From: Chiloscyllium plagiosum
Taxonomy: Eukaryota
DNA length: 64,000 bases
NCBI RefSeq assembly: GCF_004010195.1
Contig: NC_057753.1
Location: 6,727,894 to 6,791,893, forward strand
Direction of reading: 5' to 3'
The notes beneath the pieces were generated by a model. That model was not told the DNA's origin. It made no database searches and saw nothing but the letters and a program-made list of their open reading frames with translations. Every line of letters starts with the position of its first letter. Positions within the stretch are counted from its first letter, which is position 1. Position numbers and translations under genes: made by a program. This document shows, piece after piece, positions 13,979 to 60,745 of the stretch.

Positions 13979-14214
13979 GACCGTTAACCAGGCAGACCTG
14001 TCAATCACTTCAAAATTAAAGGCTATGAAGTGATTACATATTGGGGGAATGGTCCCAAAACTAAATGGAAAGTAAATGCTAGCAATATATTTTAATATTT
14101 CAGACATGATGACGAGCACGAATTTTGTCCTTGACATTGACACGAGATAATAAGTGATACATCCCGAGAACTTCATCTTCTCCTGAGACAGGATGACGTT
14201 CATTGCCAGCTTAG
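13979..14214 (-). pseudogene. GPCR gene A, truncated exon 2 (TM1-TM3 only)
   Basis: Acceptor ctctccattacag|CTAAG, then AKLAMNVILSQEKMKFSGCITYYLVSMSRTK...IYFP...IC...VIDRSAWLTV. Homology stops before the DRF motif; N1.50 and D2.50 are both replaced by K. Confidence 0.82.
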
Positions 14215-14534
14215 CTGTAATGGAGAGATCTCTGGATCCAGAACTGACCTGTAGCAAATGGACAACAGTCTGGTAAGCTAACGCATTATGAAAACTCATC
14301 TCGTGGTTTTGGGAACTGCACTTCGGGACCAGAGCTGAGCGGGAGGGAACGGAGAGCATCCAAGGAAGATAAGTGATTCTGATTCAGAGAGGGAAGCAGA
14401 AAAGTGACGTCACAAGAGAATGGTGAGTTGATTAACCAAAAAAGGGGCCCGGTAAATTTGAATCTGTGTTAAATTGAATCTTGTTAATTTATTGGTTACA
14501 GCAATGTTTTCGTTACATCATGCATAAGCGGTTA

Positions 14535-15015
14535 GAACATAGAACATAGAAGAATACAGCGCAGTGCAGGCCTTTCGGCCCTCGATGTTGCGCCGATCCA
14601 AGCCCACCTAACCTACACTAGCCCACTATCCTCCATATGATTTTCCAATGCCCGCTTAAATGCCCATAATGAGGGAGAGTCCACCACTGCTACTGGCAGG
14701 GCATTTCATGAACTCACGACTCGCTGAGTAAAGAACCTACCTCTAACATCAGTCCTATACCTACCCCCCCTTAATTTAAAGCTATGCCCCCTTGTAATAG
14801 CTGACTCCATACGTGGAAAAGGATTCTCACTGTCGACCCGATCTAAACCCCTAATCATCTTGTACACCTCTATCAAGTCACCCCTAACCTTCTTTTCTCC
14901 AAGGAAAACAACCCCAAGTGCCTCAGCCTTTCCTCATACGATCTTTCTACCATACCAGGCAACATCCTGGTAAACCTCCTCTGCACCCGTTCCAGTGTCT
15001 CCACATCCTTCCTAT
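14535..15015 (-). mobile_element. Younger CR1 LINE 3' end
   Basis: agaacatagaacatagaa tail (reverse complement of (TTCTATG)n) followed by the ORF2 C-terminus on the minus strand. Confidence 0.8.
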
Positions 15016-15597
15016 AAAATTAAATTTAAAAAAATTAACAAGATAAGAATGGAAAGTCAGAAGATATGTTGTTTCTGCACAATGTGAAAGCTGGTGGATC
15101 CCACGGATCACGTTTGTTGTAAACGTTGGTTGCAAGAAGAATTCCAGCTTAGAGTCGATGAGCTGGAGTCTGAGTTTCGAACACTGCGAGATATCCGGGT
15201 GGCATAGAGTTACCTGGATGCTGTGATTCAGGAGACAGTCATATATCGAAGCAAACTAAATCAAATACGGTGACACCATCAGGGACAGGAGGGTGTGTCT
15301 GTGAGAGAGGCAGGTAGAATGATGCAGTAGGCAGAGTTGCAGCAGTCTCAGCCCCTGTACATTTTCGAGAGGTTCAAGAGTTTTGCTTCTTGTGTGGATG
15401 GAAATGGGGACTTCAGGGCGGATGAACAAACTGACAGCAGCACCGTGGTCCAAGAAGCTATTGAACTTGTGGGAGAAGAAATAAATATAGTTGTAATTGT
15501 GGGCATTATAATTAGAGTTACAGACACTGTTCTGTGTGACCACGATCAAGAGTTCCAAATTTTGAGGTGCTGGTTTTGGACTGGGGTTTACGAAGTA

Positions 15598-15768
15598 AAA
15601 TATCATGCAAATCCAGGTTACAGTCCAATAGGTTTATCTGCAAGCACTAGCTTTCCGACTTCTGCTCCTTTGTCAAGTTGTTCACAATCACCTGATGAAG
15701 GAGCAGCGTTCCAAAAGCTACTGCTTCCAATTAAATTTGGACTATAACCTTGTGTTGTGTGATTTCAA
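15598..15768. mobile_element. Second family of Penelope-derived palindromic element
   Basis: Inverted arms aggttacagtccaa / ttggactataacct; internal CTGATGAAGGAGCAGCGTTCCAAAAGCTA (degenerate hammerhead core). Confidence 0.65.
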
Positions 15769-16350
15769 AAGAGTCACAAGGTTGTGTTGCATGACTATTG
15801 CTCGGATTCAGGATATCTCGTCTGAGTATAGAGAAATTTGGAGTGGGTGAGTAGAGGTCCAGTGGTCTTGGTCCACATCGACACCAACGTCGTAGACAAA
15901 ACGATGGCACATGTTCTGCGAAGGGGATATGAACAGCTTGGAGCTAAATTAAAAAGCAGAAACAAAATAATGATAATCGCTGGATTTCTTAGCTGAGCAA
16001 CAAGTTTATTGGCATAGAGACATTAAGATTAAGAAGGTGCTTGATTCACAGATTGGCGGGGAAGAAATATGTTTGAATTCACGTGACATTGGTGCCATGC
16101 TGGTGAAGAAAGGGGCTGTTCCAATGCAACAGTATTCATCTGAACAGTGCCGGGACCAGAATCCTAGAGAATCACATAACTACAGCTGCAGACAGGGCAT
16201 TAAAATACATGAGTGAGGACAGCGGGGTGGGGGGCAGACTGTCCAGATAATTAGAAAAAATAGAAATAAAAGAAGGACACAAGCGAGCAGAACTCATGAG
16301 AAGTTATTAAAATCTTCAACACTGACACAAAAAGTACAGAGTTTATACTA

Positions 16351-16653
16351 AGAATTAGATTAGATAACATTACAGTGTGGAAACAGGCCCTTCGGCCCAA
16401 CAAGTCCACACCGACCCGAAACCCACCCATACATTTGCCCCTTACCCAACACTACGGGCAATTTAGCATGGCCAATTCACCGGACCCTGCACATCTTTGG
16501 ACTGTGGGAGGAAACCGGAGCACCCGGATGTAACCCACGCAGACACGGGGAGAACGTGCAAACTCCACACAGTCAGTCGCCTCAGGCGGGAATTGAACCC
16601 GGGTCTCAGGCACTGTGAGGCAGCAGTGCTAACCACTGTGCCACCGTGCCGCC
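16351..16653 (-). mobile_element. tRNA-derived SINE, HE1/V-SINE-like
   Basis: Reverse complement has A-box GGTGGCACAGTGG, B-box GGGTTCAATTCC, the central GTGTGGAGTTTGCACGTTCTCCCCGTGTCTGCGTGGG domain and a (TCTAA)n tail. Confidence 0.9.
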
Positions 16654-19600
16654 TATAGCTAAGATAAGTGAGTCAAACTTCAAGCATTGGACAAACTGGA
16701 TAAACGGATGGCAACGAAAATAATGACAATGAATATTCGGTTGAAGGTGTTATTTCTGAATGCGTTCAGTCTAAGGAATAACGAAAATGGACATGTGGCG
16801 CATATCAAAATTGGCAGGTATGATGTGGCGGGCATTATGGAGCGATGGCTGCAGGGCCATTAGGATTATGAGCCGAATATTCAAGGGTATACATCTTATC
16901 GAAAAGTTAGGCAGATGGGCAGGAAAGTGGAGTTACCTTATCATTAAAACATGAAATCAAATCAGTAGTTCGAAACGAATTGGGGTCAGATGATGTAGAA
17001 TCGGACTGAGTAGAATTGAGCAAACGCAAAAGTTAAAAATAAAGGAGGGGTGATGTTCAGGTCTCTAAGCATTACTCACGAACTGGAGTACAAGGTACAA
17101 AATGATATAGATAAGATGTGTGTGAAAGGTAAAGTTACAGTAATCATAGGGGATTTCAATATGCAAGTCGAATGGGAACATCAGGTTAGTCATGGATTGC
17201 AAGAAAAGGAATTCGTGTAATATCTATGAGATGGCTATTTGGAGAGGGGGGCCCGGTAGGTGTCAGTCAGTGCTGGATGTTGTGTTGTGCAATCAGGCAT
17301 ACTTGATAAGGGAGATTAAGGTGAGTGAATCTTGAGGAGGTAGTGATCAAAATATGCCTGAATTTACTTTGCAATTTGTGAAGATGAAGATAGAACCAGA
17401 GGTAAAGGAATTGTAGCTGAATAAAGGCAACAACAGAGGTGTGAATGAGGAATTGGGTAGAATTGACTGGAGAAGGTGCCTCGCGTGAACTACAGTGCAA
17501 TAGCAATGGCAGTAGTTTGTGGGAGTAATTCAGGAGTCCGAGCAGTGATTCATTTCCAGGAAAAAAAATGCATGGTGCAGGGAGAGGGAGGCAATCATAG
17601 CTAATGGGAGAAGTCCCGAATAGGTAAACACAAAAGAGAAAGCATATAATATGGGGAAGAACAGAGGGAAACCCGAGGATTGGGAATCTTAATAAAAACA
17701 AGAGTGCAGCAAATAGTAATAGGAGAGACAAGATTTAATATGAGAGCAAGCCAGCTAATACCATAAAGGGCGTCAGGTTGTTTAGATATATAAAGGCCAA
17801 AAGATAAACAACGGTTAAATTTGGATGGCTGGAAAGGGACGCTTGAGTGATAGCAGAACAAAGAAGATTAAAGAAAATTTACAGCCCAGGCACAAGCCCT
17901 TCGGCCCTTCAAGCCTAAGCCAATTCAAATCGAGTCTCTAAATATGTCGCCCAATTCCTAAGTATCTGTATTCCTCTGCTTTCCTCCTACTCATGAATCT
18001 GTCCAGATGCATCTTAAATGAATTTAACCTCTGCTGGCAACGCTTTCCAGGCATGGGGAACAAGGAAATGGCAGAGCAACTGAATAATTACTTTGCATCA
18101 GGCTCTACAACAGCAACACAAGCAATATCCCAAAAATTCAAGACAGGGATGGGGCAGAGCTGAATATGATGTCCATCAACAAGGAGAAGGTGCCAGAAAA
18201 ACTGAATGGCCTGAACGTGGATAAGTCACCTGCACCGGGTGAATTACACCCCAGAGCTCTAACGGAGATAGCTGAAGAGCTACTGCAGGTGTTAGTGGCT
18301 ATTTTTCCGGAATTACTGGAAGCAGGGAGGGTTCCAGAGAACTGAAAAATCGCTAATGTAACACCCCTGTTTAAAAAAGGAATAAAGCAGTAAACAGAAA
18401 CTTACATACTGATTAGCCTAATCTCGGTCTCGCATAAGATCTTAGAAAACATTGTGAATGATGAGATTTTTGAAAACTTGAAAGTTTTTAGTAAAATAGG
18501 GCCACGTCAGCATGGTTTCCTCAAGGGGAGTTCATCGCTGACAAATCTGCTACAATTATTTGTAACAGGTTGGACTAAGGAGAGCCAATGCATTTTATCT
18601 ACCTGGACATCAAGAATTCCTTCCAAAGGATGTCACACTAGCATGGATAGAGGCTTGACTGTCTGGCAAAAAGCAGAGAGTGGGAATGAACGAGTCCTCC
18701 TCAGAATGGCAGCTAGTGACAAATGTTGTTTTTCCACAACGTTCAGTATTGGGACCACAACTTTTCTTGTTTTTCATTAACGATCTCGATGATGGGAGTG
18801 GGGCATGCTGGTTAAGTTTACAGACGATACAAAAACAGGTCGAGGGACTGATTAATGACGTGGGGAGACTGCAAAAGGATTTGGATAGGTTGGGAGAGTC
18901 AGCAAAGAAGTGGCAGATAGAGTACAACGTGCATAAGCGTAAGAAAATGTACTGTTGTAGAAAGAGTAGAGCCATGGACCATTTCCAAAATGGGCATAAA
19001 ATTCAGAATTCTGAAATGCAAAGAGACTTGTGAGTTCTAGTCCACGATTCTGTCAAGGTAAACTTGAAGGTTGAGTCAGTAGTTAAGAAGACAAATGCAA
19101 TGATGATATTGATTTTGAGAGGGCGTGACTATAATAGCAGTGGTGCAGTTGTCAGACTCCAAGAGGCTCTGGTCAGACCAAATCTGAAGGACTGTGAGTA
19201 GATTTGGACGCTATATCTCAAGAATCACATACTGGCCCTGGAGCGTGTTCAGAGAAGGTTCATGAGAATGACCCCCTGGAATGTAAAAATTAAATTATGA
19301 GGAACGTTTAGATTTTTTTCGCGTTTATACTTTGATGTAGTTTACAAGAATAAGGGGTACCTAGTTTAAAAACATAGAATACTGAATGGCCTTGAAACAT
19401 TAGATGCTTGAAAGATATTTCCATTAGTAGGTGAGAATATGACCCGAGCTTATAGCTTAAGAGTAAAGGGAAGGCATTTTAGAACGGCGATGAGGAGAAA
19501 CTTCTTCAGCCAGAGAGTGGTGAATTTATCAAATTAATTGCCACACAAGGGTGCGGAGGCCAGGTCATTGAGTTTATTTGAGTCTGAAACCGATACTTTC

Positions 19601-20774: not shown

Positions 20775-21090
20775 GGGCGGCATGGTGGCTTAGTGGTTAG
20801 CAATGCTGCTTCTCAGCACCAGGTATCAGCATTCGATTCTAGCCTTGGGAAAATATCTGTGTGGAGTTTATTCATTCTCTCCGTGTCTGCTTCACTGTCC
20901 TCCGTGTGCTCTGGTTTCCTCCCACAATCCGAAGATATGCATGCCAGGTGAATTGGCCATAGTGTTAGATACATTCGTCTGGGGTAGATATAAGGTAAGG
21001 GCTTGGTTCTAGGTGGGTTACTCTTCAGAGGACTGGTGTGGACTTGTTGGGCCAAAGGTCCTGCTTCCATGCTGTAGCGAATCTAAACCA
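20775..21090 (+). mobile_element. HE1/V-SINE-like SINE
   Basis: Same A-box, B-box and central domain; more diverged. Confidence 0.85.
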
Positions 21091-21376
21091 AAAAAAAACC
21101 GATAGTATCGTAATTTATTAAACCAGAAATAAACAATATGTAAACTATTATGACACCAACCTAAAGCAGAGAAAATATGAAACATGTGACCAATCCGAAA
21201 TATTACTGGGTTCAAAGATTAAAAGAACATTCCAAATCAGCAGTTATGTCTTTAAAATTTTCAGTGAGAGTGCGTGCAACACTGGACAACTGGACTGAAG
21301 TGCTAAGAATTAGAAGCTGGGGGTAGACATATCACGCTGGTCAAACACCATTTCAGGTTGATAACTGATCTATTCA

Positions 21377-21558
21377 CAGTCTAGATTAGAGTGGTGCTGG
21401 AAAAACACAGCAGGTCAGGAAGCATCCGAGGAGCAGGAAAATCGACGTTTCGGGCAAACGTCCTGTTCCTCTGATGCTGCCTGACCTGCTGTGCTTTTCC
21501 TGCACCACTCTAATCTAGACTTTGGTTTCCAGCATCTGCAGTCCTTGTTTCTACCTAC
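21377..21558. mobile_element. Penelope-derived hairpin element with target-site duplication
   Basis: Inverted arms agtctagattagagtggtgc / gcaccactctaatctagact; flanks CTGATCTATTCA (21365-21376) and CTGATCTACTCA (21559-21570). Confidence 0.8.
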
Positions 21559-23960: not shown

Positions 23961-25174
23961 CCTTTTCCAATTTATGTATTATGTAATTACATGCATTTCC
24001 TAATACATGTAAAATTATTTAGGGTTTTTTTTTATCTTCCTTGCCAACGACATTTCATTGCACCTTCCAGCCATCTTAACGTTTTTTTTAAATTTCATTT
24101 CTGTTATGCTCTTCACGGAAATTGTTTTGTTGGTGTATGCTGAAGCTTTCAAATATTTCTTTTTATCTAAACTTACAACTCTCATCATTCGAAGTTTCTG
24201 AATTTGTCGTCTTTAAATTTCATCCTCACAGGAACGTGTTGTTCCTGAAGTTTGGTCAACTAGCTTTTGAAAAGCTTCCAAATGGCAGATATGGATTTAC
24301 ATACAAACAGCTGCCGCCAGTAAGATCAAAGACAAATTACTCAGAATCATACAATAACTGTCGACGGCAATACGGTAACAGATCTACAATTATGCCTTGA
24401 AATCGATGCAAAAATGATCGATCCACATCGGCATGGGAATTAGGTATATTTATAATCAAGACAAATGTTGTCAGAAAAAAATAAATCCCATGATCAGGGA
24501 CACAATTGTTCGATGAGGCATTATTAGTAACAATACTCACATCATGTTCCAACATAACGTTTAAACGCATGTGAGTATTGCCAAAGCTGCAATGAAACTA
24601 TGGTGATATCATCATGACTTTCAATAACTGGACTCACAATTATACGATCAATAATGCAATGGAATTTTAGGTGCATTAACATAATACCATTCCGCTCACA
24701 CCGACAGTGTTAATACTGCAATAGAACTGTTTTCAGATCATACGGTGACAGTAAACGTGGCAAAAATATAATTATAGGAATTAAGTGGTCACCAACACTA
24801 GAAGATAGTTTTGCATTCAAGGGAATATCATATAAGCATTAAGAAGAATCTGTGAATAAAATCTTACATTAACTGCAAGGAAGGATATCGCCAATGCAAT
24901 TATATATCGTTGTGAAAATGAACGAAACAATGCAGTTAACCAATGATTGACATAGCTGGCACCGACTAACTAAATTGAGTGAAGCAAGGCAAACACAACA
25001 AGTCTGGCAGCATCTATGGAGCGAAAACAAAGTTAACTTTTCAAGTCTACTGACTCTGCTTCTGTTCAGGGTTTGTTTTATTTGTACTGAAGCTGACTAG
25101 CTGGCTGAATTTCTAAAGCAATTTATAACTTCTTTTCCAGACTTCAATTAACCACAGTTAAAGATCGAAAATAA

Positions 25175-25436
25175 TTACTTACAGAGTGGAAGCAGGCCCT
25201 TCGGCCCAACAAGTCCACACCGACCCTACGAAAGGCAACCCGCCCTTAACCCAATGCTATGGGTAAATTAGCATAGTCAATTCACCTAACTTTCACATTT
25301 TTGGGCTGGCAGAGTAAATCCACACAGACACGAGGAAAATGTGTAAACGCCACACAGCAAGTCGCCTAAGGTGGGAATTGAACCTGGGTCTCTAGCACGG
25401 CGAGGTCGCAGCACTAACCACAGGGCCACCGTGCTG
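25175..25436 (-). mobile_element. HE1/V-SINE-like SINE abutting the gene A exon-1 donor
   Basis: Homologous to 16351-16653; its 5' end starts about 5 nt after the GT donor. Confidence 0.85.
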
Positions 25437-25441
25437 CTTAC

Positions 25442-25514
25442 CAACGGTGACTCTAATCACTGCAAGGACAGGATAGTAAATGGCAAACACCAGACCTATT
25501 TCTATTCCATGCAT
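25442..25514 (-). pseudogene. GPCR gene A, exon 1 (MHGIEIGLVFAIYYPVLAVIRVTV)
   Basis: Clear paralog of gene B exon 1 (GLVFAIYYP); 73 nt with phase-1 donor G|GTAAG. Conserved GVP is altered to RVT. Confidence 0.8.
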
Positions 25515-25805: not shown

Positions 25806-25822
25806 GGCCACTGACTGCGCTG
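25806..25822 (-). promoter_or_regulatory. Conserved upstream motif of gene A (minus strand CAGCGCAGTCAGTGGCC)
   Basis: Matches 37787-37803; 13-bp core ACTGACTGCGCTG is identical. Confidence 0.5.
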
Positions 25823-31728: not shown

Positions 31729-31734
31729 TTTATT
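31729..31734 (-). terminator. Candidate polyadenylation signal (AATAAA) of gene B
   Basis: TTTATT on the + strand, about 115 nt downstream of the gene B stop codon. Confidence 0.35.
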
Positions 31735-31849: not shown

Positions 31850-32775
31850 TCACGCTGACCTCTTTCCTAAAGTTACAAGTTTATTCAGTATGTTAAATGG
31901 ATACTTTGTCCCTTTCATTAACTCATGTCTGAATTTGTTCTGGGTTCCCACATAGATGAACGGATTGATGCAAGAACTCAATAACTGAAGCATATATCCA
32001 CCTTGCTGTAGAACAAACGTGGAACTTCTGAAATTAGAGACTGAGGAATAAGGGACATTCGAAATTCGGACATAGATGACCGATATAAACAATAATAATG
32101 AAAACAGGATGAAGCTGGCCGAGATGAGGAAGAGCAAAACAATGGACTTTCTCCGCTTCTCCATCTCTGGGTCAGTCTGTACCTCCGAATTACTTTTTGT
32201 GTGGAGTCTCCTCCTGGCTCTATTCGCCACTAGAATGTGCCTCACCGTCAGTACGTTGAGTAAAAGAATCAGAATGAAAGGGAGAAAAAGAGTTAAAATG
32301 GACCAAATCCAATCATATACAGCCCATACAGTTAAGGTGTAATATGTTGGTGTATTTGCACAGAACCAAGGGACATTGTTGATTATGTACAATGGCTCAT
32401 AGGAAAAATAATTGAAGATATTTTTTATGCAAGCGAGAATGAACACGGTTCCTATAATCCAACTCGCGGTATTCTCCTTGCAATATTTTATTTTCAGGTT
32501 CTGGCAAGAAATGGCCACAAATCGATCAACGGTGAATGCGACTGTTAACCAGATAGAACAATCAATAACTGCAAAGCATATAACAGAGCGTACACTGCAG
32601 ATTGGAGTGATGGACAGGAAACTGGTTGGAAAATAAATGCCAGCTATCCGATTCAATCCGACTACAGCCAACATGACACTGAGGTCTGTCACCGCCATAG
32701 ACACCAGGTAATATGTGATACATCCAGAGAGACCACATCGTTTTCGGCACAATATCACAATCACTGCCAGGTTAG
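31850..32775 (-). CDS. GPCR gene B, coding exon 2; class A 7TM receptor, GPR139/GPR142-like; spliced product 331 aa
   Basis: Pyrimidine-rich acceptor cctctttattcctccctgtattaag|CTAAC. Open frame with MAVTD (TM2), C3.25, WLTVAFTVDRFVAI (TM3, DRF), ECL2 Cys, FLPF (TM5), NPFIY (TM7) and KFR helix 8. Family assignment is from motif recall, not a search. Confidence 0.92.
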
Positions 32776-33534
32776 CTTAATACAGGGAGGAATAAAGAGG
32801 TGAATAGTCAGTAATACTCATTCTGTGTATCGAAACAAAAAGAAACAAAATTACATTCTTGATATGTGATGTTAAGATTGTTTTTTTTTCTCACACTATA
32901 GCTATCTTTTACTGATGTTAACATAATTATACTGGTGAAAAAACAACAGGTCGATTTATTTCAGATATGTGTTGATGAGAACCAATCAATTTCACGAAGT
33001 ACCAAACCAAAGAAACATGAAATTGATAAAAAGAAGTAATAACGAAGAAAATACCACATCAGCAAACGAAGATACAAAAATGAAGACGACGAAGAACTGA
33101 TTAGTCACGAATGAGCATGATAATAATATGTAGCGCATGACCATAAAACGTTTCCCTGCAGGAATTATTGCTAAAATGTTCACTGATAGAAATATTGACA
33201 GTCATGTTGCTCAAAGATAATCTCAAAGTGAAAGCAACAGGAGAACAATTAGAACTTTTCTAATTTTCAGGGTCCCAATGGCGAATCTGAACTGTCTGCC
33301 CCAAATAACTGGAATATTTGGTGTATACCAGGTCTATTGAGACTGGGAGTCGAACATGTCTCGTTCACTGAAAGACCCGTGACATTGAGCACCTTTTCAA
33401 TGTTGCATTCACCTGTCGGGATAAATCATAAACTTAATCATGCTGTGGAAGTTTGAAATTAAGGCCATGTGCATGAAATACGACAGATACCACCCACAAT
33501 CAACAGTCAATTAACGTATTATGAAAATAACCTA

Positions 33535-36350
33535 GAATATAGAACACTACAAAGAGTTATCTTTATCAATATTTTTGTCGGACATGATGCCATTTTAAAT
33601 AAATTATATCCGTCTGTGCATACTCTATATCTCTTTTCTTGATTCCTGTTTGTGCATCTGCCGAAAACCTTTTAAATATGCGGCGTTTCTCTTCGAGCAC
33701 CGGCCCTGGCAACACATTCCAGGAACATATCATACTCTGTATAAAAATAGGCTTTACCCAAAATTATTCTCCTTTTCACGTTTAACCCACGCCCCTGTAG
33801 TAACTGCAACTTCATCCCGGGAATGAAAAGACTCCAATCATCCCCCATATCCAAGATAATCAAAACGTATATACTTCTCAGCTGCCGATTCTGCAGCAAA
33901 AAATCCAAGTGTGTCCCTCTTCCCTTTATATCTAATACACTTTAATCTTGGCGGAACCTGCCTGGCTTACTCCTGCACCAATAATAAACAAAAAGCTTGA
34001 TGCCATCCAGTGCAAAGCAGCTGGCTTGATTAGCAACCACAGTCACAAATATTCAGGGCCTCCATCACAGAGAATCAATAGTAACATTGCATAATTTCTG
34101 TAAGATGCACCTAAAGAATGCTCCGAAGATAAAGATAAGCAAATCTTCGAGAAGGGCACGGGCTGCAGATTCATGGATACTTCATCATCTGGAAATTCAC
34201 CGACAAGCCATACACTATGCTGAAATGGACATATATTGCCGCTACTTCTCTGTCACGGAGTCAAAATCCTGGAATATGCTCTCTCGTGGTACTGAGGGGC
34301 AACAGTATTGATGGTTTAAGAAAGAACCTCATCATCACCTCCTGAAGCGGACCGAGGCAGGGTGAATAAATGCTGGTTGAACAGCGAAACCCATATGCCA
34401 CTAACGAATGCAATAACAACTCGTTTGAAACATTTCCATGTATTATACAAGATTCCATAACCGTGGCGACCAAAACAGCATCAATACTCTAAATATGACC
34501 TCATAGAAATTTCGTACTGTTGCAACCTGAGTTGTTATCATTCATGCTCAATTCCCCGACACGGTAAGTGAAGAATGCTCTATGCATTCTGTCCTAACTT
34601 ATTTACTCCAAAAAGACATCGATGGGACTCCAAGCACACTCTGTATATTAATGCTCTTCAGAACCTGCCATAACCTGCATATTTTAATCTTGTATTTTAC
34701 CTCCCAAATATACTATGTTGCATGTCTGGATTTAATTCCATTTGCCAATGTTTCTAATTGATCCAGGTCATGCTGTATCCTTTGCTAACTTTCCTCACGA
34801 TCTGAAACTCCACCAATTTCTGTTACGGCTGCAATTTGATTCCTTGTGTAATAAGACTAATTACTGACCTTGTTTTAGAAAATAAATCACGCTTCCCGAA
34901 CTATGGACTAATCTCTACGACCAGCTAATTAACCCTCTGTTGGTCCAATTCAACATTAATTCTGGAACAGCATGGTGGATATTGACAAATGCTTTATTAC
35001 AGTAGATGTAGGCAACATCCATGACACGACCCTCATCAATCATCTTCTTCACCACCTCAAAAAAAACGTAATGGATTTTTTCAGAGAAAGCTTGCCCCTC
35101 AAATAGCAATGCTGACTATATCGAAAAAGGCGATTATTCCTCTAAAACAGAGTAAATCTTGTTTCTAGGAATATTTTTCCGAACATTTCCTCCTACATAT
35201 GCAAAGCTCGCCATCATATAATTTCTAGGATTATCGCAATGGTTATCTTTAAACGGAATCACAGCATTGTCTATTCTTCAATCTTTTTGTGACTGTGCTA
35301 AACACCACACAACGATTTCAGTTAAAATCCGACACTGCACACAGTTATCTTCTCTTTTGCTTCCTTTAGCATCCTGAGTCAAATCCCATCATGCCCAGAA
35401 AATGTGTGGACTTTTTGCTTCTCTTTCAAGGTGCCTATACTTCCGCCATTAAATATCAGTATTCCCCAGAATGTCACATAACCCTCCCTTAATTTATCAT
35501 GATTTATATCACTCTCTGTAGTAAAGGTCACTGCGAAGTACTCAGTAGGTGCCTCACCCACTTCCTCTTTTGTCACTGAGTGGATTATCTTTTCTCTCCT
35601 GACGCTCCAGCTCCAGGCATATGTACAAAATGACTTGGGGTACTCCGTAACCTTACTTGCCAAAGACCTGTTAAAGGCACCTTCTCGGCCTTTAAATTTC
35701 CAATTTAAAACTCTGTACTGCTTCCTGCAAATTTATCAGGGAACTCTTCTTTCCTGAAACTCGCATATGCTTACATTTCTTTTTCTTTTTGTTTACCTTT
35801 TCAGCATCACATTTTAATCGAAGTTTCCCAAGTTTTACCAACCTTATGTATTCGCCTCACAGGAAAATGCTGTTTCTGCGCTCTAATGAAGTGGCCGTTA
35901 ATAAATTTTAACATATCAGACGGGTACTTTCACCACAACAGCCGCCCAAATCTACTTTCTCAGGACGTTGTCTAACAATGTTCTAATTATTTTTCTCCCA
36001 ATTTAGCACGTTCACCTACTATCATTCTTATCTTTTTTTTCCATAACCAGTTGAAAATTCACGGGATTATAATCACTTGTTGCAACATGCTCCCATACTG
36101 AAACCTCTATTACCTTGCAAGACCAATTTCCCAATGTGTTGTATTGTCCCTTAAACTGTTGGACTAACGACGTACTGCTTCATTTAAATTTCCTGGAAGC
36201 AAATTCATCCCGGTCTAAGTTTTCTGGCAGTAAGGAGTCCTGGTCAATATTTGGGAAATGCTGACACCCAATACACCAATCCTGTAAGATTTACTTCTTC
36301 CCCGATACCATACAAATTCGTCCCTTCATTTGCCACGAGCAAACAGCTGT
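33535..36350 (-). mobile_element. Degenerate CR1-type LINE fragments in the gene B intron
   Basis: KMIDEGRVMDVAYIYCNKAF and PKSFCTYAWS...EYFAVTFT remnants; a + strand LINE 3' piece is nested at about 33960-34420. Confidence 0.7.
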
Positions 36351-37433
36351 CCATATTTTAACCCTTTCAGGCTGACGGAACTTCCTTATTCTTATTTTGT
36401 CCTGTACATGTGCTTTCATTGGATGATAACTCCAAGATAACTTAGTCTTAGTGTATTGGAACAGTTTATTTCATCAGCAGTGTCACTGTAACCATTTTTA
36501 TATCCCTCTCTTTCTGGTATAGAATTCGTAAATGATGACAATAGAACAATCAGATTCACTGGCGGCCGTTCTGAATAAAACAAAACCTGCCACTCAGCAA
36601 GCTATTAAATCAGAAAATTTAATGGCAACTAATTGAGAGCAAGTGATATGTTTTTACAATCAACTGGAGACTGCGAGCAGTTCCCTGGGTGTTTGTGGTA
36701 TATACTACAGATGCTGCCAAAGGTGATTCATTTAAATCATAATAACTATGCTTCAAAGCATATATTTACTCAATTTAATCGGTACTTATCAATGATTCAA
36801 TTCTTCCAGTGAATGAATCGATTATCGGAATGATTCAGTCGCTGTCAAAGGCCACATTTCCAAACTTAAATAACAACTTGCTGCGATAATTCAGGAACTG
36901 AAACAGTGGCAGGAAAATAAGAAAAATGCATCTGTAATGCGATATTATGAAAGCACCATGCAGTGGAGCATTTTTTTTTTAACAATTGAACTGCATGTAC
37001 ACTGCTCTTCCTTATATTATGGCGAATAACGACATTGCCAAGAACACCGTGGAATTGCAATTGCACAGTGGTAATGACGTGTGATTTAAATTGTGTCAAA
37101 GCTTATAACGTATACACGTGTTATGAAGGAATAAATCACAGCAAAGATGAAATGTCAAGATATAGTGAATAAAAATCAACATTATTTATTCAAACATTAT
37201 TTCTAGCCGAGCAATAAATTATGATAAATGAACAATTAATATTGTAAAACGAAAAGAAACTCTATAGTTAGACAATTTAAAGCAGTGAACAGAAAAGGAC
37301 ATTTGTAATGGCAAACATGCATTCTGCTAAATAACGCAAAGAGCAATTGTAATGTGCGTACAACTGAGGAAAATGGAGATTTTTGCAAAGATCTATCGAT
37401 TCTTGCATCTATTAACTGACTTTCATACTCTAC

Positions 37434-37503
37434 CTGGAACTCCAATTAGTGCAAGGATAGGGTAGTAAATGGCGAACACTAGACCACTTAGTACTTCATG
37501 CAT
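37434..37503 (-). CDS. GPCR gene B, coding exon 1 (MHEVLSGLVFAIYYPILALIGVP; N-terminus and first half of TM1)
   Basis: Reverse complement reads ATG CAT GAA ... GGA GTT CCA G|GTAGAG: 70 nt with a phase-1 GT donor, matching the phase-1 acceptor at 32775 to give ...IGVP-ANLAVIVIL. Too short for the ORF track. Confidence 0.88.
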
Positions 37504-37786
37504 TTCTATGAACTGCTCCGAGAAAGCTATGCACTTCTGTGGAAAAATTGCTTTATTTATACTCCGGGGATAACAAATAATTTTACATTAATTGCGTTGT
37601 TGTGACAAACATGTCATTTCAACCTTAGTTTAATTCGTGTTTATACTTTGACAGGTCTTAAATGCTTTTCATCGAATATAACAAGATTGAAAATTCTAAA
37701 TTTAAATGTATTCATGGAAATAAATATGTATCTGAGTTCCACTTATTCGTAAATGAGTTAAAGACCGAGATTTTGGCATCGTGTCA

Positions 37787-37803
37787 GGCAACTGACTGCG
37801 CTG
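37787..37803 (-). promoter_or_regulatory. Conserved upstream motif of gene B (minus strand CAGCGCAGTCAGTTGCC)
   Basis: 16/17 identical to 25806-25822, at a matching distance (about 285-305 bp) upstream of the ATG. Confidence 0.5.
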
Positions 37804-38739
37804 CGAAACTCAAATACACTCCGTGGAACTACAGGTAGCTTCTCTCTGAACATTAGTCAGTCCGTGTGGTCATTAGTAAGGCAGGCAAAATTCCAAGCTT
37901 TCACTGCACAATAGTGGTATGAGAACTTCTGACATATTCAGTAAGGCCAGATGCAAATAAGTGCCATTAAATTTAGTGCACACAGGCCTAATTCTTCGTG
38001 GTAACGTTATAGGAAGACTTGCTCACATCTGTGTCATTATCTTCGAAGCTAGAAAAGCATTTTCCCGAGTATTTTGTCATTAAATTCGATGTAAGCGTAT
38101 CCAGCTAAGGCTTTTTGTACTCAGTGCCAACCTATTCACCCAATGTGACTTCAGGTGAAGCTTCAGTACAAACAAAATCATCATAATTACATTGTATAAC
38201 TCTAAATTCAAATTAGCACACATATGATTAGAATGATTCAATTCCTTACAGTAAGTTCTCAAACATCCCAAACGATGTGGACTTCAGCATGACTAAAACC
38301 AGTTTGGCCTCGCACAGTTCAGAATGATTGTTTTCAAGCTCATTAATTCCCGCTGCAGTTCAAGACATTTGTCTTAAATGTATGACAGTGAAAGTCAGTA
38401 CACGATACTAATAGTTGAAAATCCTGTTTGAATATTTCCGATCAGTTGGACAATCGTTGGCTTATTGCATATCGAACCTGAGGTGAAGCATTGCAGTTTT
38501 GGTTTATCAGTAATTAACAAGTGCAGTTGAATTTTAAATGGCAACATGCGGGCGAGAGTGTACCATTTTGTTTAATTCTGAAAATAAATCTTTCACAAAA
38601 GTGTTGTGTAAGACAGTGGAGGTTCTAATCTATAAACGTTGCTGCACACGAAAATTGTATTTCATCTGAGTGGAATGATTTCTTCCATTGAGATGATAAT
38701 TTCCTCAACAATGAATTTTTAATTAGGCATAATTCATCT

Positions 38740-39018
38740 AGATTAAATTAGATTAGATTAGATTACTTACAGTGTGGAAACAGGCCCTTCGGCCCAACAG
38801 GTCCACACCGCCCGCCGAAGCACAACCCATCCATACATTTACCCCTTACCTAACACTACGGGCAATTTAGCATGGCCAATTCACCTGACCTGCACATCTT
38901 TGGACAGTGGGAGGAATCCGGAGCACCCGGAGGAAACCCACACAGACACAGGGAGAACGTGCAAACTCCACACAGTCAGTCGCCTGAGGCGGGAATTGAA
39001 CCCAGGTCTCTGGCGCTG
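38740..39018 (-). mobile_element. HE1/V-SINE-like SINE, 5'-truncated
   Basis: (GATTA)n tail and high similarity to 16351-16653. Confidence 0.9.
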
Positions 39019-41999
39019 TCAGTTTGTTTTTGTTCTTTAATTGCTGCAAAAGCTTGGAGCGATTTCATTTTAATCGAACTTCTTTTCACGTTTCGTACTC
39101 CTATAATCCTGCTTTTACATTTAATGCATAATGGATTACCGCAACAAGTCTACTGGAATTGATTACTTTGATGCTGTGCTGAAACGTATTTAATACATAG
39201 TGTATTTTTGTTCTTCAGTTTGAAAACAAGTACAAATTATGACTAGAAAGAAATCAGTGAATTATTGAACAATATTCATGTCAATTAATAATTTGTTGAT
39301 TGCAATTATCAATGGGATGCTGAATAAAGACAATTTGCTCTTTGTTATTGACACCAGGGTCACCTCCATGCTCTTGCTATTCTGTGATCAGCGAAGGCCT
39401 TCGTTTTATCTCCTTTCAACACCACGTTAATAAAATTGCGATAAGACAATACGTTTGCTTCTTCCCTCAACTCCACGTCCTTAACTAATCATTTCTCCCC
39501 TACACACATATTCCTTCAAGCACATCTAAACTGTCTCTCCACCTGGACACCTCCTGATGTCCTTTTGTCTGCAACCAATCTGTTCATCGACGTGTCAATG
39601 GTCATCTCAATTTCTCTTTCCCATTCTCCTTCCAACTTGTTTCCAACAGAACTATCTGAACTCCGTAATTGCATAATCAACCATTATATGGTAATCAAGT
39701 CTGTGTGCAAGTGTGGTGCTGTTGTTTTCTGGCATACTGACATTGATGTTATGGGGACTAAATGCCAGATGTTAAATATCTCGTATGAAAGTAACCCTGC
39801 TTTCATAGGTGTAGTCTGCCCTCTGCTTTCTTTCAAAGATGTTTTGAGGCATAGACTACGAGTTCTCTCTCTAAGCCATAAAATTACACAGCCTGAGGTT
39901 GTTTTGTTTTAAATTGGAACAGCAGAAACAGTATGAATGGGTGGAGGCATACTCCCACGGACCCAGCGTTTCAGTTTTAAGTTCAGTGGTTTGTTTACGG
40001 GTTGAAATGGACCACGGAAACTATCTCCCTCTCATCCAGAGTTATCTATCGGCTTCCTGAATCACACGTGAGATAATCAATTTTACTCAATATGCCTTTG
40101 AGAAGGTAATGCTTATGTAAAGTTACGACACTGAACTCTTGCTGATTAGTAGTTGAACAATCTATTATTATGTATAGTTTTACAATAGAGGTTGGGTTAA
40201 ACAATTATTCTTTCTTTTGTCTTCATTTCAACTGTAGACTTGGAATAATATCTGTTTTGCTTAAAGCCCAGGAGAATAGCAAAATGATTTATCTACAACA
40301 CATCACATCCCATTCACCTTTAAAGGAGATAAATGTTGAGGTTTATGCTTTCTTCTTGAGTTTGACGTGGTTTGGCTTGATGCTTCATATTTCTCCTAAC
40401 TCCCCAGGCCTTTAATCTTTCCAGGTAGTTTGTCGACAACGGTCACTTATTTCAACTGATGTTTTCAATACACCCACATCTCTTTCCGAGCCGCCAAACA
40501 CTAGCTCTCCAACACTGCACAGTCAGCTACTTTTCCTTCCAAAAATCCACAAACAGGACTACTCAGGCAACCCCACTATCTCTGCCTGTTCCTGACCGTA
40601 GATCTTGTCTTTCTCCATCTTGGCTCTTGTCCACACTCTTCCCACTTACACTGCAATTCTTCTCAAGCTTTATCTCAGTTTTAGAATTTCCAGTTGACAG
40701 ACACCATTCACCTCCTGTTTCCCATGGATGTGAAATCGATATGCATGCATATCGCCCATCAAGATACTGTAAGACCTCTTCAACTCCTCCTGGGGAAACA
40801 AAATGCCTGAACTGTCCGCATTTATGACCATCCTCTTCTGCTTTGCAGACATTGTTCTCACTTTCAACAAATTCTCATTTAACTCAGGTCAAAGCAGCAG
40901 TAATGAGTGAGAGGAAGGGGTATAAAGAAGTCTTTGTGAGTTGCATGGAGCGTTCAACCTTCCAGTTTTACTCAGTCTCCCAATGGCAATTCTTTCATAG
41001 AAAGAACTATTAACAACATCAATAGTCATTTCCTCACGTGTTTACATCTGGATAATTTTCATTATTTCCTCCAATATCTCCCCTGCTCTCATCGTCCCCT
41101 GATCCAACTCTGATATCAAATGCACCACGTTAATTTTCACATGTTCAGTGATGACAGTCAATTCTATCTCACAGTCATCCCTTTGCGTTGTTTTACAGCA
41201 AACAAGTTATCCAACTGCTTTGTTCGCATCTGGGAAGCACCATTGGAAATTTAATTTCCCACGACTAACTTTATCATTCTCCCTTGGATCCGTTTCAGAC
41301 TCAACTAAACTCATCAGAGCCTTGCTCTCATTTCTGACAGAAGATTGCTTTCCGATTACACATTCACAAAATAGCAGAAAGTTCAATCATGAATGTATTC
41401 TTTATCTCCACTTCACTCTAGTTCATCTGCTATGACGCTCTGGTGCATGTCATGTTTCCGTCGACAACAATCCAACACGTTACAGGGCTTGCTCGCACGT
41501 AGAATCGTGTGAACATTTACAACTCTGCTGTTCGCATTGTGAATCATGTCTCCTTCACTCATTATTTATTTTTCCCTTGACAATGACTGGCACCTGACAA
41601 AAAAAACCTCACTTTTAAAATTAACATTCTTGTTAATAAGTCCTTTGTTGACCCTACTTCCATCACTTCCACTGACATCACTTTCGAATGATCAAAGCTG
41701 CTTTTAGTACGGCCTCTTTAGATTCGCAGGTTTCAAGTTAAACACAAGTGGTTTCCATGACTTAGTGTGAAACTCTGAAATTATATTCTTAAACAACTCC
41801 ATCTTGCTCTCTTGATGAAAGGAGCTTGTCAAAAATGACCCCATCAACCTAGCACCTTTCAAAGGCGCTCTCTCTGACTTGGTGATGAGTTTTGTTTTCA
41901 CAATCCTACTCTGAATCACCATTCGACATTTCTGTACGTGAAACATGTTGGTCAAGTACAGCTGTGACTCTCGTGATACCACCAAATTGTGAGAATGCT

Positions 42000-44460: not shown

Positions 44461-44469
44461 AACAAAGAG

Positions 44470-45420: not shown

Positions 45421-45429
45421 ATTGCCTTA

Positions 45430-55139: not shown

Positions 55140-55575
55140 TGGGTAAATATGAGGACTGCAGCAAAAGTTCAGATGTTTTTTCTGACTGAAACTCCATCAA
55201 TGCAGTCACAATAAGGAGAGGCCGTTCACAGGCTCCGAGTGTGGTAAACGATTCAGTCAGTCATCAGACTTTCTGAAACACAATGAGTTCATACAAGGCT
55301 GCTCCTTGTGTGGAAAGTAATTTAAAGAATCTTGCATGCTGGCCACACCGGGAGAGACTATTTGAGTGTTTTAAGTGTTCTGGTGAATTGATGGTCTAAC
55401 AAGGTAAACACTCTGATGAGAAGTTATTCAATGTGAGTATGAGTTCAGGGAAGTGTCTGGTCTTTAAAAATACTAGCCAATTCACACTGGGGAGAGCATT
55501 TTTTAACTGCTCTGAATGTGGGAGCAAATCAATGGTTACAACTGTGCTTCTGAGACGCCAGCGAACACTTGAGTA
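55140..55575 (+). pseudogene. Decayed C2H2 (Kruppel-type) zinc-finger array
   Basis: Hand translation gives LKLHQCSHNKERPFTGSECGKRFSQSSDFLKH...CSLCGK* and later HTGES...CSECG, i.e. degenerate HTGERPF linkers with stops and frameshifts. Confidence 0.75.
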
Positions 55576-57499
55576 ACTACAGTGGTGACACTTCACCGTG
55601 AATTTGAGCCCGGAATGAACTGATAACATTGGTGCTTGTTTCTGTTGATGTAATTAAACTCCACCCTAGTTATAGGTGTTAATACTCTGAATAGATGTTA
55701 CGTGATTGCGTTCTGTGTTCATCTCTATGTGTTAACTTGTTTTCCGTTTCTCAAATGGCAGAAAGAAAGGGAAACATTTTAATAATGTGAAACGTTGGCC
55801 ATTTAATTTTGCATCTTTATTTTAATGTGTTGCAGAAAAAAATACATCAGTGTGAACAGATACAAGAGGAGATGTTATCTCATTCTAATTCAATCTGACA
55901 ACAGTTCATATTGATGCAGTTCATTCAGCCTTACAAAGGTTCCAAGATGCTTCCCAAGGCATCAGATGCTCCAGCATGACACCGAACACGTGTATTAGGG
56001 AAGGCAGGGAAAAGCTTAGGCAAAGAGTTTGGGTGCGTGAAAATTTCCTAAAGGAGGAAACTGTCGACATCATCTTCCAAGTCAAAGCATTTTGTGTCAC
56101 TGACTGAAGGAGTTGCTTACAAATATCATTTTATCAGAGAAACTTGCATATCGTGGAAATGACGAAGAAAACGTGAATGTGAATGTGAACAAGCCAAGTA
56201 TGAAAGTTTAGAGTCAATTTCAGGTGCTGTATTCACCAGGATTTCCTGTTTTTCTTTTCTTTTACCCGCCATAACCTCGGTATGATTCCTGGTTCCAGTC
56301 AATGAATATTGTACAATTCTAATCTGAAAATCGTTACACATAACAACTGATTCAAACAGACGGTGTAACGCCATTTTCTTTTTTTTTTGTAAATAGACTG
56401 CAAACATCGATACCAAGATTGGGCAATTTAGACAGCTAGATTCTATCTGGCGCGTGAATTCTTAGAGTCCATTCAGCACAGTTTTTAGATGCCAGTAAGC
56501 AACAGGGCAAGATTGTCTCTTGAAGCTTATGTACAATAAGACAGGATGAAATCGTTACCTCGTTATAAATAATCCTTAAAATACGTGATAATAGCTAATG
56601 TTGTAATATCAAAGAAAGATTATTTAAAAATATATGAACACCAAGTTTACTGCAGTGTAGCTTGATAAAGATTATTTTAGAAACATGTAGAGAAGAAATG
56701 ATTCAACATTTCCATTGAATTTCATCATTTCCAGTGAAGATCAATTCTATTGGAAATGCCTATTTGAAAAGGCAGGTTTACTATTTGTGGCGAAGAAAGG
56801 ATTGTAACGGTGGCATAATATTGGAAGAAAATACGTATAAAGTTACACAAATTTATGACAGCGCAGTTGATGAGGAAACAAAATGTAGAAATAAACAATG
56901 TATAACAGGAATAAATCAGAATATAAGGGAAAAGTTCGTATTGTTAAAGAAAATGAAGTCGCCCTTACATTGAGTTCAAATGAAAATAACAGCAATAAGA
57001 AGCCTTTGCTATGTGACTGGGAATTAATATTGGACAACTTTTCAAGTTTGTGTTGACGTTGAACATTTAATCTGGACCTAACTTTCTATTAAAATAGTCG
57101 TGCAATATTACAAGGACACTAGAAGAGCGGAGAAAACGAAAGAACTGAGAGATGAAGTCGAAATAATTATATTAACTCGAGATCGAACAATAAGAAAATA
57201 AACCAGACAAAAATGTGACAAATGTCACGCATATTATAGCTTTTATCCGGGGAGTTTAAACGAAAATACTGTAGTTGAGGATAAATATATTTGTGCTGAA
57301 TTAGCGTATAATCACCCGATTATTTTGTTTGGATAGAAAGTAAACTTATACTGATTATTTTAACAACTGTTTAAAGGGAACTCAGGTTTCTTGCAAATCA
57401 ATCCAAATTGATCAACCTACTGATGAAGAACATAATTTTACTTTTTAAAAAATCCGAATCACAATTTTTGCTGAGGTTGGACATGAGGTTTATCTCCTC

Positions 57500-57660
57500 T
57501 ATTGCTCTCAGCAAAAGTAAAGGGCTAATCATTGATTTCAGAAAGAAAGGAGGACAACACGCCCCAATCTCTATCAACGAAACTGAGGTTGAGAGGGCAG
57601 AGAGCATTAGATTCCTCCAAGTGGTGATAGCCAACACCTGTCCGGGACTGCCCATGTAAA
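57500..57660 (+). mobile_element. Rex1/Babar LINE 3' fragment
   Basis: SKSKGLIIDFRKKGGQHAPISINETEVERAESIRFL. Confidence 0.65.
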
Positions 57661-59834
57661 TGCATTAGACTGATGGATGAACTCTCTAACGTCAATAGTG
57701 CTGACCTTGCTAACGTTGCTGTTGCCTCGTACACGCCCTGTGGCAATGTAACTTGCATGTCTCTTTCTAAGCATTTTCTGATCTGTATATCCTTGCTTAC
57801 TATGATCTGCCTCGTAAACAATTATTTTCATTGTACTTCGTTACGTGTGGCAATAAATCAATCACACCAAATCAATGTGAAGACGATGTTTTAGGTTTCT
57901 GCTGGTAATTGGCTGACTATTCAGGAATTAGCTTCTGCATTAATTATCTGGAGAGTATTTCAGGGCAACTCAAAGTTGGAGGAAGCCTGCAAATCTCTTT
58001 CTCAGTCTATTCGGTAATTAATTCGGAACTGGATAATACCTCCATGAGTCAGTAGTGTAACAATTTGGGAAAGCCAATAAATTTGAATCCACTAACCAAA
58101 GGCTTGATTTGAACTGCAGTGCAATCCTATTAAAAGCACCGTTTAAAAGATTATCCGAATCTACAGCTGTGAGCAATTGAGTTCATCAATAAAAAATTAA
58201 TTCATGTACAATTTCGTACCAAGTCACATGACAGCTAAATAATTGTGCCTGGACACACTGAGCCCTCCTTCTACTTCCTCGTCAATCTGTTTTAATGTTC
58301 AATGTAACATTTATTGTTTTTTTGTGTGAGGGTTGTAGGGTTGTTGATCGATTAATTTGAACTGCCAAAAAAAACAGGTTGGATGGTGACCAAAGAAGAG
58401 GTTTGATGCACTGTGCTGATTCCCTGGCCAGATATTTGCATTGCAGGAATAAGACGAAGGACCAGCAACATTCTAGTAAAGTGTGTGTATATTATTATAC
58501 TTGGAGCAATAAAAGTGTTTGAAGATTTAGAGTCTGCTAATCCAAGGATGAACCGATAGTAGTAATAGCCCTCCGTAGATAATTAACCTCGCCATTCGTG
58601 AGACTGCTAACGTAGTAATGACCACTGAATATGATGTCATGATTGACGGTTGCAGGATCAATGTCGAGGACCTCTCGGAAGACGCCTTAATGAAAAATAG
58701 TGGTGCGTGTTTGCTTTTGAAAAGAGATTACAATACAAATATAACAGCTTTCAGAACAAGAGCACTAACAAAAATTGATAAAGGATATGAGCGAGAAGCC
58801 TTTGGCTATACTTACCCCACTTATAGAGGACGAGGCACTGGAGATGAGAGGCACAGGGAGACGGCAGACAATAGCTAATGGTGAAAAGTGTTTGACGACC
58901 CCAATCACCAATGCATTAATATCTCCACTTTGCAGAATAAAGCATGTGCTCATGTGTGCACTGCAGAGATAGAGATTAAAAGTGTGAATAGTTCACAAGG
59001 AAACGTTATTTCCTCATAGCTATTTTGTCTAGTTTCTGGATGATGGGTGGGAATATCCAAATTCCCAGTTTTACAATACTCGTCCATCTCTAGAGCATGA
59101 TCAACATGTGAATAAATTCAATTCACAGAAATCTCCATTATTTTCACCAGCACATATAACTTGATATGGGCAAATGGTACCATGTTGTTATAATAGGATC
59201 ACAATCTGGAGAGGTCTCAGCAGAAAACAACTCGAAAGTCTCGCGAAACTGGTGGTATTTAGCTTTTCTTACTCTGAACAATATAGGAATGGTAGGTGAT
59301 GTTCAGTTTCAAGCTGAAGCGCCCACAAAGGCTGCAAATACCGATGCAGCAGCGGGGTGAGCGAATGCCTGGCCGCTTCAAGGGGCAATGTGCTTGCAAT
59401 TGTGGCCTTTTCATGGGCTCATCTAAGTTCTGTGTGCAACCAGGAGTTAGGGAATTGTAATAAGGGATGAGCGAGGAATGGTGCTATTGGCAACAATGCT
59501 CACAGTGGATGGATGAATGAACCAATGGGAACGACAAAAGAACAAATCAACAAACTCCCGCCTGCATGATTCAGCAACTTTTGGTCGTACATCTATACCG
59601 ATCTGCAACGTGCTTTGAGCTGATGAAACTGAACCAGTCTGAGTTAGCATGACCAAAACTATTTGGCAACTCATTGAGATTATTTCGTGAACTGAACTTT
59701 GCAAAAAAAATGCGTTCCTTATGATTTATATATTCATATGCTAGGTATAGCTTTAAAATACAGAACCCTTTATAGGAGGTCACTTGTATTAAGCAAACAG
59801 AAATGAATGCATTTTATACAGGATTACCATGTGT

Positions 59835-60745
59835 TCAATGTTTAAGTAACAGAATTAGAAGACTTAATGGATATTTTACCACGTTCTTTAAGTCAGTTCT
59901 GAATTTACTCTGGGTCCCAGCATAAATAAATGGATTGATGCAGGAACTCAACAGCTGAAGCATAAATCCGGTTTCCTCAAGAGCAAATGTTGATTGAGTG
60001 AAATTAGAACCTGAGAAATAAGTAAGCTTCGTGACTCTTACATAGAGGATTGTTATAAAAAACAATGAATATAAGAGGATGAAACTTGCTGAGATGGCAA
60101 AGAGTAACAGAATGGACTTTTTCCGTTTCTCAATCTCTGGGTCTATCTGAGTCTGTCTACTTCCTTGGGCTTGAAACCGCCTGCGGGCTCTATTAGCTGC
60201 TACAATGTGGCTGATAGTGAAAGCATTGAGCAATAAAATCAGAATGAACGGCAGAAAAGGGTTTAGAATGCAACGTATCCAGTCATAAGCAGCCCATGCA
60301 TGTGACTTGTAAAATATTAATTTTACACTGCAAAGCCAGTCTACATTACTGATCGTGTAACCAGGTTCATACACAAAATACAAGAAAGCATTTTTCACAC
60401 AGAAGAATGCTGACACAATTCCTATTACCCAAACTGCTGTCTTCTCGGTGCAATATTTCATTTTCAGCTTCTGGCAACTAATGGCAACAAATCGATCGAA
60501 GGTGAAAGCGACTGTTAACCAGGCAGAACTGTCTATAGTTGCAAAACTTAAAACATACCGGAAACTGCACACTTGTGTGATAGATAAGAAAGTGACTGGG
60601 AAATAAATCCCGGCAATTCTGTTGAATATCACAGACGTGACTATGACCAGGAAATCCATCACTGCCATGGACACCAGGTAGCAGGTGATGCATCCGGATA
60701 GACCGCATCTTCTTCGAGAAAGGATCAGAATCACTGTCAGGTTAG
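59835..60745 (-). CDS. GPCR gene C, coding exon 2 (paralog of gene B); exon 1 presumably beyond 64000
   Basis: Acceptor ctttctctcgctctctactgcag|CTAAC at the same phase and position as gene B. Open frame ANLTVILILSRRRCGLSGCIT...WLTVAFTFDRFVAI...NPFIY...KFR. Aligns to gene B without gaps, about 185/300 identical by hand. Confidence 0.92.

Follow-up and report, generated by a model that had tools for sequence, protein, structure and literature searches.

Introduction

Among receptors of solved structure, those closest to the genes described here are human GPR139 and the peptide receptors; as given in the accessible part of PMC6367278, human GPR139 is activated by L-Trp and L-Phe, is coupled to Gq, and accommodates these ligands in a pocket formed by E108, F109, I112, H187, W241, R244, and N271. 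Non-mammalian subtypes near GPR139/142, named GPR210A/B, have also been described, with no mention of sharks in the available portion of that paper (Rinne et al. 2019, PMC6504862). As for receptors devoted to chemical sensing, 65 genes belonging to six known families have been reported in the catshark (PMC6368271, accessible part), and in Aplysia clustered, pseudogene-bearing families of rhodopsin-like receptors are expressed in chemosensory organs (PMC2700072), a parallel that serves here as an analogy only. The present report concerns a stretch of 64,000 nucleotides of Chiloscyllium plagiosum (contig NC_057753.1, positions 6,727,894 to 6,791,893; hereafter, the window) and the three copies, named A, B, and C, of a class A G-protein-coupled receptor (GPCR) gene that it contains on its minus strand, as identified by a six-frame scan and tblastn.

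These copies belong to a large expansion found in sharks and rays (elasmobranchs), a receptor repertoire which is real, large, and apparently uncharacterised. Two intact-looking genes and one pseudogene represent in the window this extensive two-exon class A family, which may be a repertoire of chemical sensors, our preferred reading, with chances that we consider evenly balanced.

The Three Copies and Their Architecture

The elements assigned to the three copies are the following, all on the minus strand.

59835..60745, minus strand: copy A exon 2, open frame from mid-TM1 (first transmembrane helix) to the stop, placed by Pfam, tblastn, and its acceptor
37504..37900, minus strand: putative proximal promoter of copy B
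37434..37503, minus strand: copy B coding exon 1, 70 nt, with ATG, 23 codons, one further base, and a GT donor
32776..37433, minus strand: copy B phase-1 intron inside TM1, 4,658 nt, with GT..AG ends
31850..32775, minus strand: copy B exon 2, class A GPCR
25442..25514, minus strand: copy C exon 1, 73 nt
13979..14214, minus strand: copy C exon 2 remnant, from TM1 to early TM3, pseudogene

In the six-frame scan, the second exons of A and B correspond to long minus-strand frames at 59838-60821 and 31853-32776, and a shorter related frame is found at 13913-14383. The first-pass annotation of this DNA had described three same-strand copies, two with open, gap-free second exons about 62% identical and one truncated; all of this is confirmed, A and B being 61-62% identical over 297 residues without gaps when compared by tblastn inside the window. 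The common architecture it had proposed (a tiny first exon, a phase-1 intron in TM1, and one large exon) holds for copy B and, as regards the acceptors, for all three, since an AG acceptor in phase 1 lies just ahead of N1.50 of TM1 in each exon 2; exon 1 itself, however, is seen only for B and C. Indeed, a search of the window for mini-exons running from ATG to donor returned two, at 37503-37434 (B) and 25514-25442 (C), the latter one codon longer than the former and 81% identical to it over 70 nt. Mini-exon searches did not find exon 1 of copy A in the window, the interval from 60746 to 64000 included, and it presumably lies beyond position 64000; "intact", when applied to copy A, refers to exon 2 only, and its architecture is seen on the acceptor side only.

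The spliced product of copy B has 331 residues, is joined in phase 1, and contains no internal stop; its exon 1 agrees with the N-termini of database relatives, and an AATAAA signal is found 115 nt past the stop. In copy C, homology within exon 2 extends over 79 codons (46-51% identical to A and B) and ends at 13979, so that the copy is cut off in TM3, ahead of the DRY-type motif; tblastn over the whole window turned up nothing of its 3' part. Its two exons would form one gene across 11.2 kb. An assembly duplication was considered as the source of the copies and rejected: the synonymous divergence (dS) between A and B is 0.9, and B is recovered in contigs of run X2 with few differences.

A and B are class A (rhodopsin-like) GPCRs. 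Pfam assigns both to 7tm_1, with E values of 7e-21 and 8e-20, and, together with 116-120 of 120 relatives, they carry the class hallmarks N1.50, D2.50, D/E-R-Y, P5.50, NPxxY, and the cysteine pair between C3.25 and the second extracellular loop (ECL2). The structure model of copy B, at a mean pLDDT (predicted local distance difference test) of 69, that is, with moderate confidence, shows a class A bundle, with the helices after TM1 and the ECL2 hairpin. Two motifs are modified: position 3.51 is F in the subfamily (DRF), and the CWxP motif of TM6, a common but not universal class A feature, is mostly lost, with Y at 6.48 in 105 of 120 relatives (W in 8) and L at 6.50 in 94 (P in 10; copy A has Y/L, copy B S/L). 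Residues 14, 91, and 99 of copy B exon 2 are intracellular-loop cysteines, fixed in 120, 110, and 120 of 120 relatives, and a lipidation or metal site is a possible role for them.

Size and Distribution of the Family

With copy B exon 2 as the query, 747 proteins are retrieved at E ≤ 1e-10 among 3601 candidates; in the best 120 of these, 60-69% identical to B, 119 are named as shark and one is unnamed. Of these 120, 74 come from the horn shark (54 of the 74 from a single record of 59.5 Mb) and 14 from the whale shark. A profile search of 50%-identity representatives gives 131 matches at E ≤ 1e-30; among the 29 of 150 listed rows for which the species was looked up, strong matches come from sharks, skates, and rays, and weak ones from amphibian, coelacanth, teleost, lamprey, amphioxus, and invertebrate sequences, with no chimaera among the 29, a result that is no proof of their absence. 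In run X3, labelled as the same species, 685 contigs align with the copy A exon at an identity of at least 80%, 628 of them below 95%; the depth summed at the TM3 motif reaches about 215,000 (unique stretches: about 20-28), a figure which is not a copy number and which points to 250 or more copies if, as assumed, each is counted at most 31 times.

The proposal of a lineage-expanded repertoire is supported by the counts of matches, horn-shark members, and contigs just given, and, with at least 74 members in the horn shark, a family of only two or three copies is not what is observed. The pseudogene-bearing tandem array likewise stands, the dead copy C conforming to a birth-and-death pattern.

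Family models in RefSeq/UniRef are typically 325-326 residues long. Shark and ray models called "probable G-protein coupled receptor 139" are of the same family as copy B, with 60-69% identity and the same short N-terminus; models of this same set also appear as "GPR15-like", "capa receptor-like", "sex peptide receptor-like", and "TRH receptor-like". The names are automatic, and the label "GPR139" is misleading. Marra et al. 2019, on the white shark genome, is said to note several "GPR139" copies and to suggest a sensory role; if so, the expansion would be partly known, but not its size, origin, or pocket pattern. A full-text literature search, most subscription papers being outside its reach, found no description of the family; for the terms searched, the main texts of PMC10620051, PMC10787021, PMC12208981, and PMC8455134 hold no mention of it, and no family match occurs in the supplements of PMC13188829 or in the first 12 of the 24 supplement files of PMC8455134.

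Relationship to GPR139 and to Other Receptors

When the family profile is compared with solved structures, human GPR139 is the best match (PDB 7vug, 9m42; 53.4 bits, E 2e-13), closely followed by TRHR (52 bits); copy B alone gives no GPR139 match at E ≤ 0.001 and reaches only GPR15, and a fold search with its model returns class A receptors with GPR139 only at rank 24. Atlas look-alikes of the family are the FMRFamide/Srw-type receptors. Human GPR139 thus shares the class A fold but differs at five of the seven tested pocket residues: profile alignment and residue tallies show that A and B keep the equivalents of F109 and I112, the others being replaced (in A/B, E108 by S/C, H187 by R/W, W241 by Y/S, R244 by F/L, and N271 by F/Y). 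Because most pocket residues are replaced, amino-acid sensing is not transferable by homology to these copies, and the suggestion of such a role in the first-pass annotation finds no support. Its description of the copies as "GPR139/142-like" is correct in the sense of a distant relationship but not of orthology, GPR139 scoring about as well as TRHR and the closest kin in bony vertebrates being another orphan (see below). One-to-one orthology to GPR139 was rejected on the grounds of a similarity no higher than that to TRHR, of two out of seven pocket residues retained, and of the many copies; orthology of this kind to GPR15, to TRHR, or to the coelacanth clade described below was also rejected, so that no known receptor emerges as a 1:1 counterpart.

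In a tree of 67 sequences, built without canonical GPR139 or GPR142, A and B fall inside an elasmobranch-only group, a clade of amphibian and sturgeon sequences is joined to the expansion (support 98/94), and the coelacanth clade stands apart. Support for a single group of all 44 elasmobranch rows is weak (83/41), 42 of them being held together at 99/94; an approximately unbiased (AU) test speaks against a grouping of the expansion with the coelacanth clade that leaves out the amphibian clade (p 0.026), this grouping having been chosen after the tree was seen.

The amphibian and sturgeon sister gene is an orphan called "probable GPR139" (query P0216, Pleurodeles XP_069092602.1), whose 25 matches comprise 20 amphibian, 1 sturgeon, and 4 elasmobranch sequences, the last at 32-33%. 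Most of its members share both cysteines of the second intracellular loop (ICL2) with the expansion; unlike the multiplied shark family, it is apparently single-copy, with about one 90% cluster per amphibian species, and it keeps W6.48 and P6.50, mostly lost in the subfamily of the window, and a GPR139-like pocket (F3.33, W6.48, K6.51, N7.39). Being apparently single-copy, this gene is a good starting point in the search for the ancestral ligand. It carries N in place of D2.50, and its predicted pocket is nearly invariant.

The coelacanth clade (P0222, XP_005988539.1) belongs to the same wider group, at 141-167 bits to the shark subfamily. It is represented by roughly one gene per species in fishes, amphibians, and reptiles, and the best 120 of its 145 matches include none named as bird or mammal; its own shark members, 60-66% identical to the coelacanth protein, are separate from the expansion. 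Non-mammalian orphans of this type are possibly the GPR210A/B of Rinne et al. 2019, the identifiers being unmatched. Two models of the coelacanth clade bear the name of TMEM183A isoforms, which may point to a gene next to it.

With respect to the known chemoreceptors (OR, that is, olfactory receptors, TAAR, V1R/ORA, V2R, T1R, and T2R), the shark family resembles them in its tandem clusters, its pseudogenes, its short N-terminus, and a variable pocket combined with a conserved signalling face, but differs from OR, TAAR, V1R, V2R, T1R, and T2R genes in having its coding region split by an intron. No OR, TAAR, V1R, V2R, T1R, or T2R profile was matched by A or B in Pfam, only 7tm_1 being found at E ≤ 0.01; to our knowledge, TAARs lack a dedicated Pfam model. 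ORs usually carry an N-terminal glycosylation sequon, unlike the shark family models, none of which (0 of 86) has one.

Diversification of the Predicted Pocket

Variability was compared at 33 generic pocket positions and 18 positions of the G-protein face, lists which follow general GPCR numbering and not the copy B model; no phylogenetic correction was applied, paralogues and columns are not independent, and the sets were picked by similarity to B. Among 74 horn-shark paralogues the entropy is 1.17 bits in the pocket, 0.61 at other transmembrane (TM) positions, and 0.20 at the G-protein face (p 9e-6); the pocket exceeds the other outward-facing TM positions as well (p 0.002), and its excess was reached in 0 of 10,000 permutations. 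Single-copy controls show the reverse, with 0.08 in the pocket vs 0.51 at other TM positions in 20 amphibian sequences and 0.67 vs 1.04 in 120 others. Copies A and B are identical at 17 of 33 pocket positions and at 17 of the 18 positions of the G-protein face (Fisher p 0.002). In the horn shark the predicted pocket is thus the most variable part of the TM region and the G-protein face is nearly fixed, a pattern that fits what would be a ligand-diversified repertoire.

A and B are shown to be under purifying selection, the ratio of nonsynonymous to synonymous divergence (dN/dS) being 0.29 overall (dS 0.92) and 0.65 in ECL2 and ECL3 together. For copy C, dN/dS is 0.40 against both A and B, while the A/B pair gives 0.24 when restricted to those same 78 codons.

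Possible Roles of the Repertoire

On the reading as chemical sensors, each intact gene would encode a receptor of about 325-331 residues with a very short, unglycosylated N-terminus; the ligand would sit among TM3, 5, 6, and 7, where the copies differ, and every copy would have a small-molecule or peptide ligand of its own. Signalling would proceed through the intracellular face, whose near invariance suggests one shared G protein. A single ancestral gene of jawed vertebrates probably stayed single in amphibians and sturgeon, the elasmobranch copies having multiplied by tandem duplication with loss. The stronger claim, namely an unrecognised vertebrate chemoreceptor family numbering hundreds to thousands per genome, recruited independently from a GPR139-like receptor of neuropeptide type and outnumbering all known smell and taste receptors of sharks and rays taken together, is put forward tentatively, its probability falling somewhat short of even. 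If the repertoire is sensory, a single species with at least 74 members in one subfamily, and with a diversified pocket, would overturn the count of about 65 shark chemoreceptors (PMC6368271, accessible part), and a further independent origin of vertebrate chemoreceptors would have to be admitted.

Several results weigh against a sensory role. The pocket of A vs B, when set against other TM positions (90 of 134 identical), is not significantly more divergent (p 0.11); the pocket excess is weaker in the whale shark (p 0.04, 14 sequences), not significant in the zebra shark (p 0.20, 8 sequences), and absent relative to other outward-facing TM positions in 46 sequences from species other than the horn shark (p 0.47). 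No dN/dS above 1 occurs in the A/B comparison, and pocket codons give 0.15, with dS near saturation. Within 1.5 kb upstream, neither of the two available promoters (B and C, a small sample of which the latter is from a pseudogene) contains the O/E consensus, as given in the accessible part of PMC8213819, at one mismatch or fewer; a loose homeodomain-O/E composite pattern of our own, not the exact matrix of PMC5608512, has three matches in the window, none of them upstream of the start of B or C, it being noted in the accessible part of PMC5608512 that most mouse OR promoters lack the composite. Reads at an identity of at least 95% on A or B are absent from X5 and X6, two single-cell polyA runs of unstated tissue of which about 2% and 6%, respectively, were read and which say little about expression. 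A top-50 list for catshark "brain & olfactory epithelium", in the accessible part of PMC11979771, is without any GPCR, a weak point in that it has no known olfactory receptor either. Finally, a family of immune receptors would be expected to leave this same signature in its sequences.

In the same partial runs, copy B collects 2 reads in X5 and 0 in X6 at 90% identity or more, and copy A 19 and 0 at 80% or more, on both strands and in some cases extending into the intron. No RNA run is indexed as carrying the copy B exon; run X7, whose RNA status is a guess, has 5 paralogue-like contigs which may be DNA. Five X5 reads at window position 60467 consist of a paralogue TM3 segment followed by unrelated GC-rich sequence, possibly from a damaged copy of the family fused to a repeat.

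Homeodomain hexamers are near background level in the B and C promoters. A loose O/E-like site 67 nt before the ATG of B was discarded as evidence: it has two mismatches to the published consensus, and sites of that quality recur in the window at a rate of about 4.7 per 500 nt. A TATA-like site lies 58 nt ahead of the same ATG. A block of 17 nt is common to the upstream regions of B and C, about 300 nt before the ATG (37787-37803 and 25806-25822); it follows a pyrimidine-rich run that ends in CAG and over 15 nt also matches the short interspersed element (SINE) of the window. The block may represent a promoter element, an acceptor, or what is left of a SINE.

An unlikely competitor of the chemosensory proposal is a repertoire for immune surveillance, acting in leukocytes or barrier epithelia and sensing microbial or damage-derived peptides or metabolites in the manner of formyl-peptide or Mas-related receptors. 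The large clusters, their turnover, and the variability of the pocket are no less in keeping with immune receptors, the olfactory promoter signature is missing at B and C, and MAS1 and its relatives are reportedly missing in cartilaginous fish (PMC8455134); the closest kin, however, are of the neuropeptide-receptor/GPR139 type and not chemoattractant receptors, and no immune gene occurs among the open reading frames (ORFs) of the window that were scanned. Were it correct, the family would be an equally unrecognised innate receptor system.

Rather improbable, in our opinion, is a repertoire for internal metabolites, peptides, or reproductive signals (in gut, brain, gonad, or sperm), elaborating an ancestral GPR139-like role and possibly still binding aromatic amino acids. 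The ranking of human GPR139 as best solved-structure match, together with its activation by L-Trp and L-Phe (PMC6367278, accessible part), would agree with such a role, as would the equivalent of F109, which remains aromatic, and the GPR139-like pocket retained by the amphibian sister gene; against it stand the five replacements in A and B given above, and a few internal ligands would hardly explain hundreds of pocket variants.

A mostly neutral inflation of copy number, by which a duplication-prone, repeat-rich segment accumulates redundant copies with relaxed constraint on their outer face, is the least probable of the explanations considered, for although one copy in three is dead, LINE (long interspersed element) and SINE fragments fill the window, and dN/dS nowhere exceeds 1, the purifying selection on A and B has persisted to a dS of about 0.9, horn-shark variation is concentrated in the pocket beyond the neighbouring outward-facing positions, and many subfamilies persist across sharks and batoids.

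Other Sequences of the Window

Apart from the receptor copies, the window shows LINE and SINE debris; a Pfam scan covering 19 of the remaining long frames gave only a reverse transcriptase and an esterase fragment above the cut-off, and an Rfam search gave no match. A degraded LINE, presumably CR1-like, occupies positions 6500-10700 of the plus strand, with part of an ORF1 that carries an esterase domain (Lipase_GDSL_2, E 3e-8) and part of a reverse transcriptase (RVT_1, E 1e-10). A SINE-like repeat of about 300 nt is present in five copies, 70-90% alike (16354-16653, 20775-21098, 25174-25449, 38748-39022, and 61655-61993), one of which begins directly after the donor of copy C exon 1. A palindromic repeat of about 160 nt, resembling a miniature inverted-repeat transposable element (MITE) and matching itself when reversed, is found at 1719-1876, 13510-13702, and 21375-21553.

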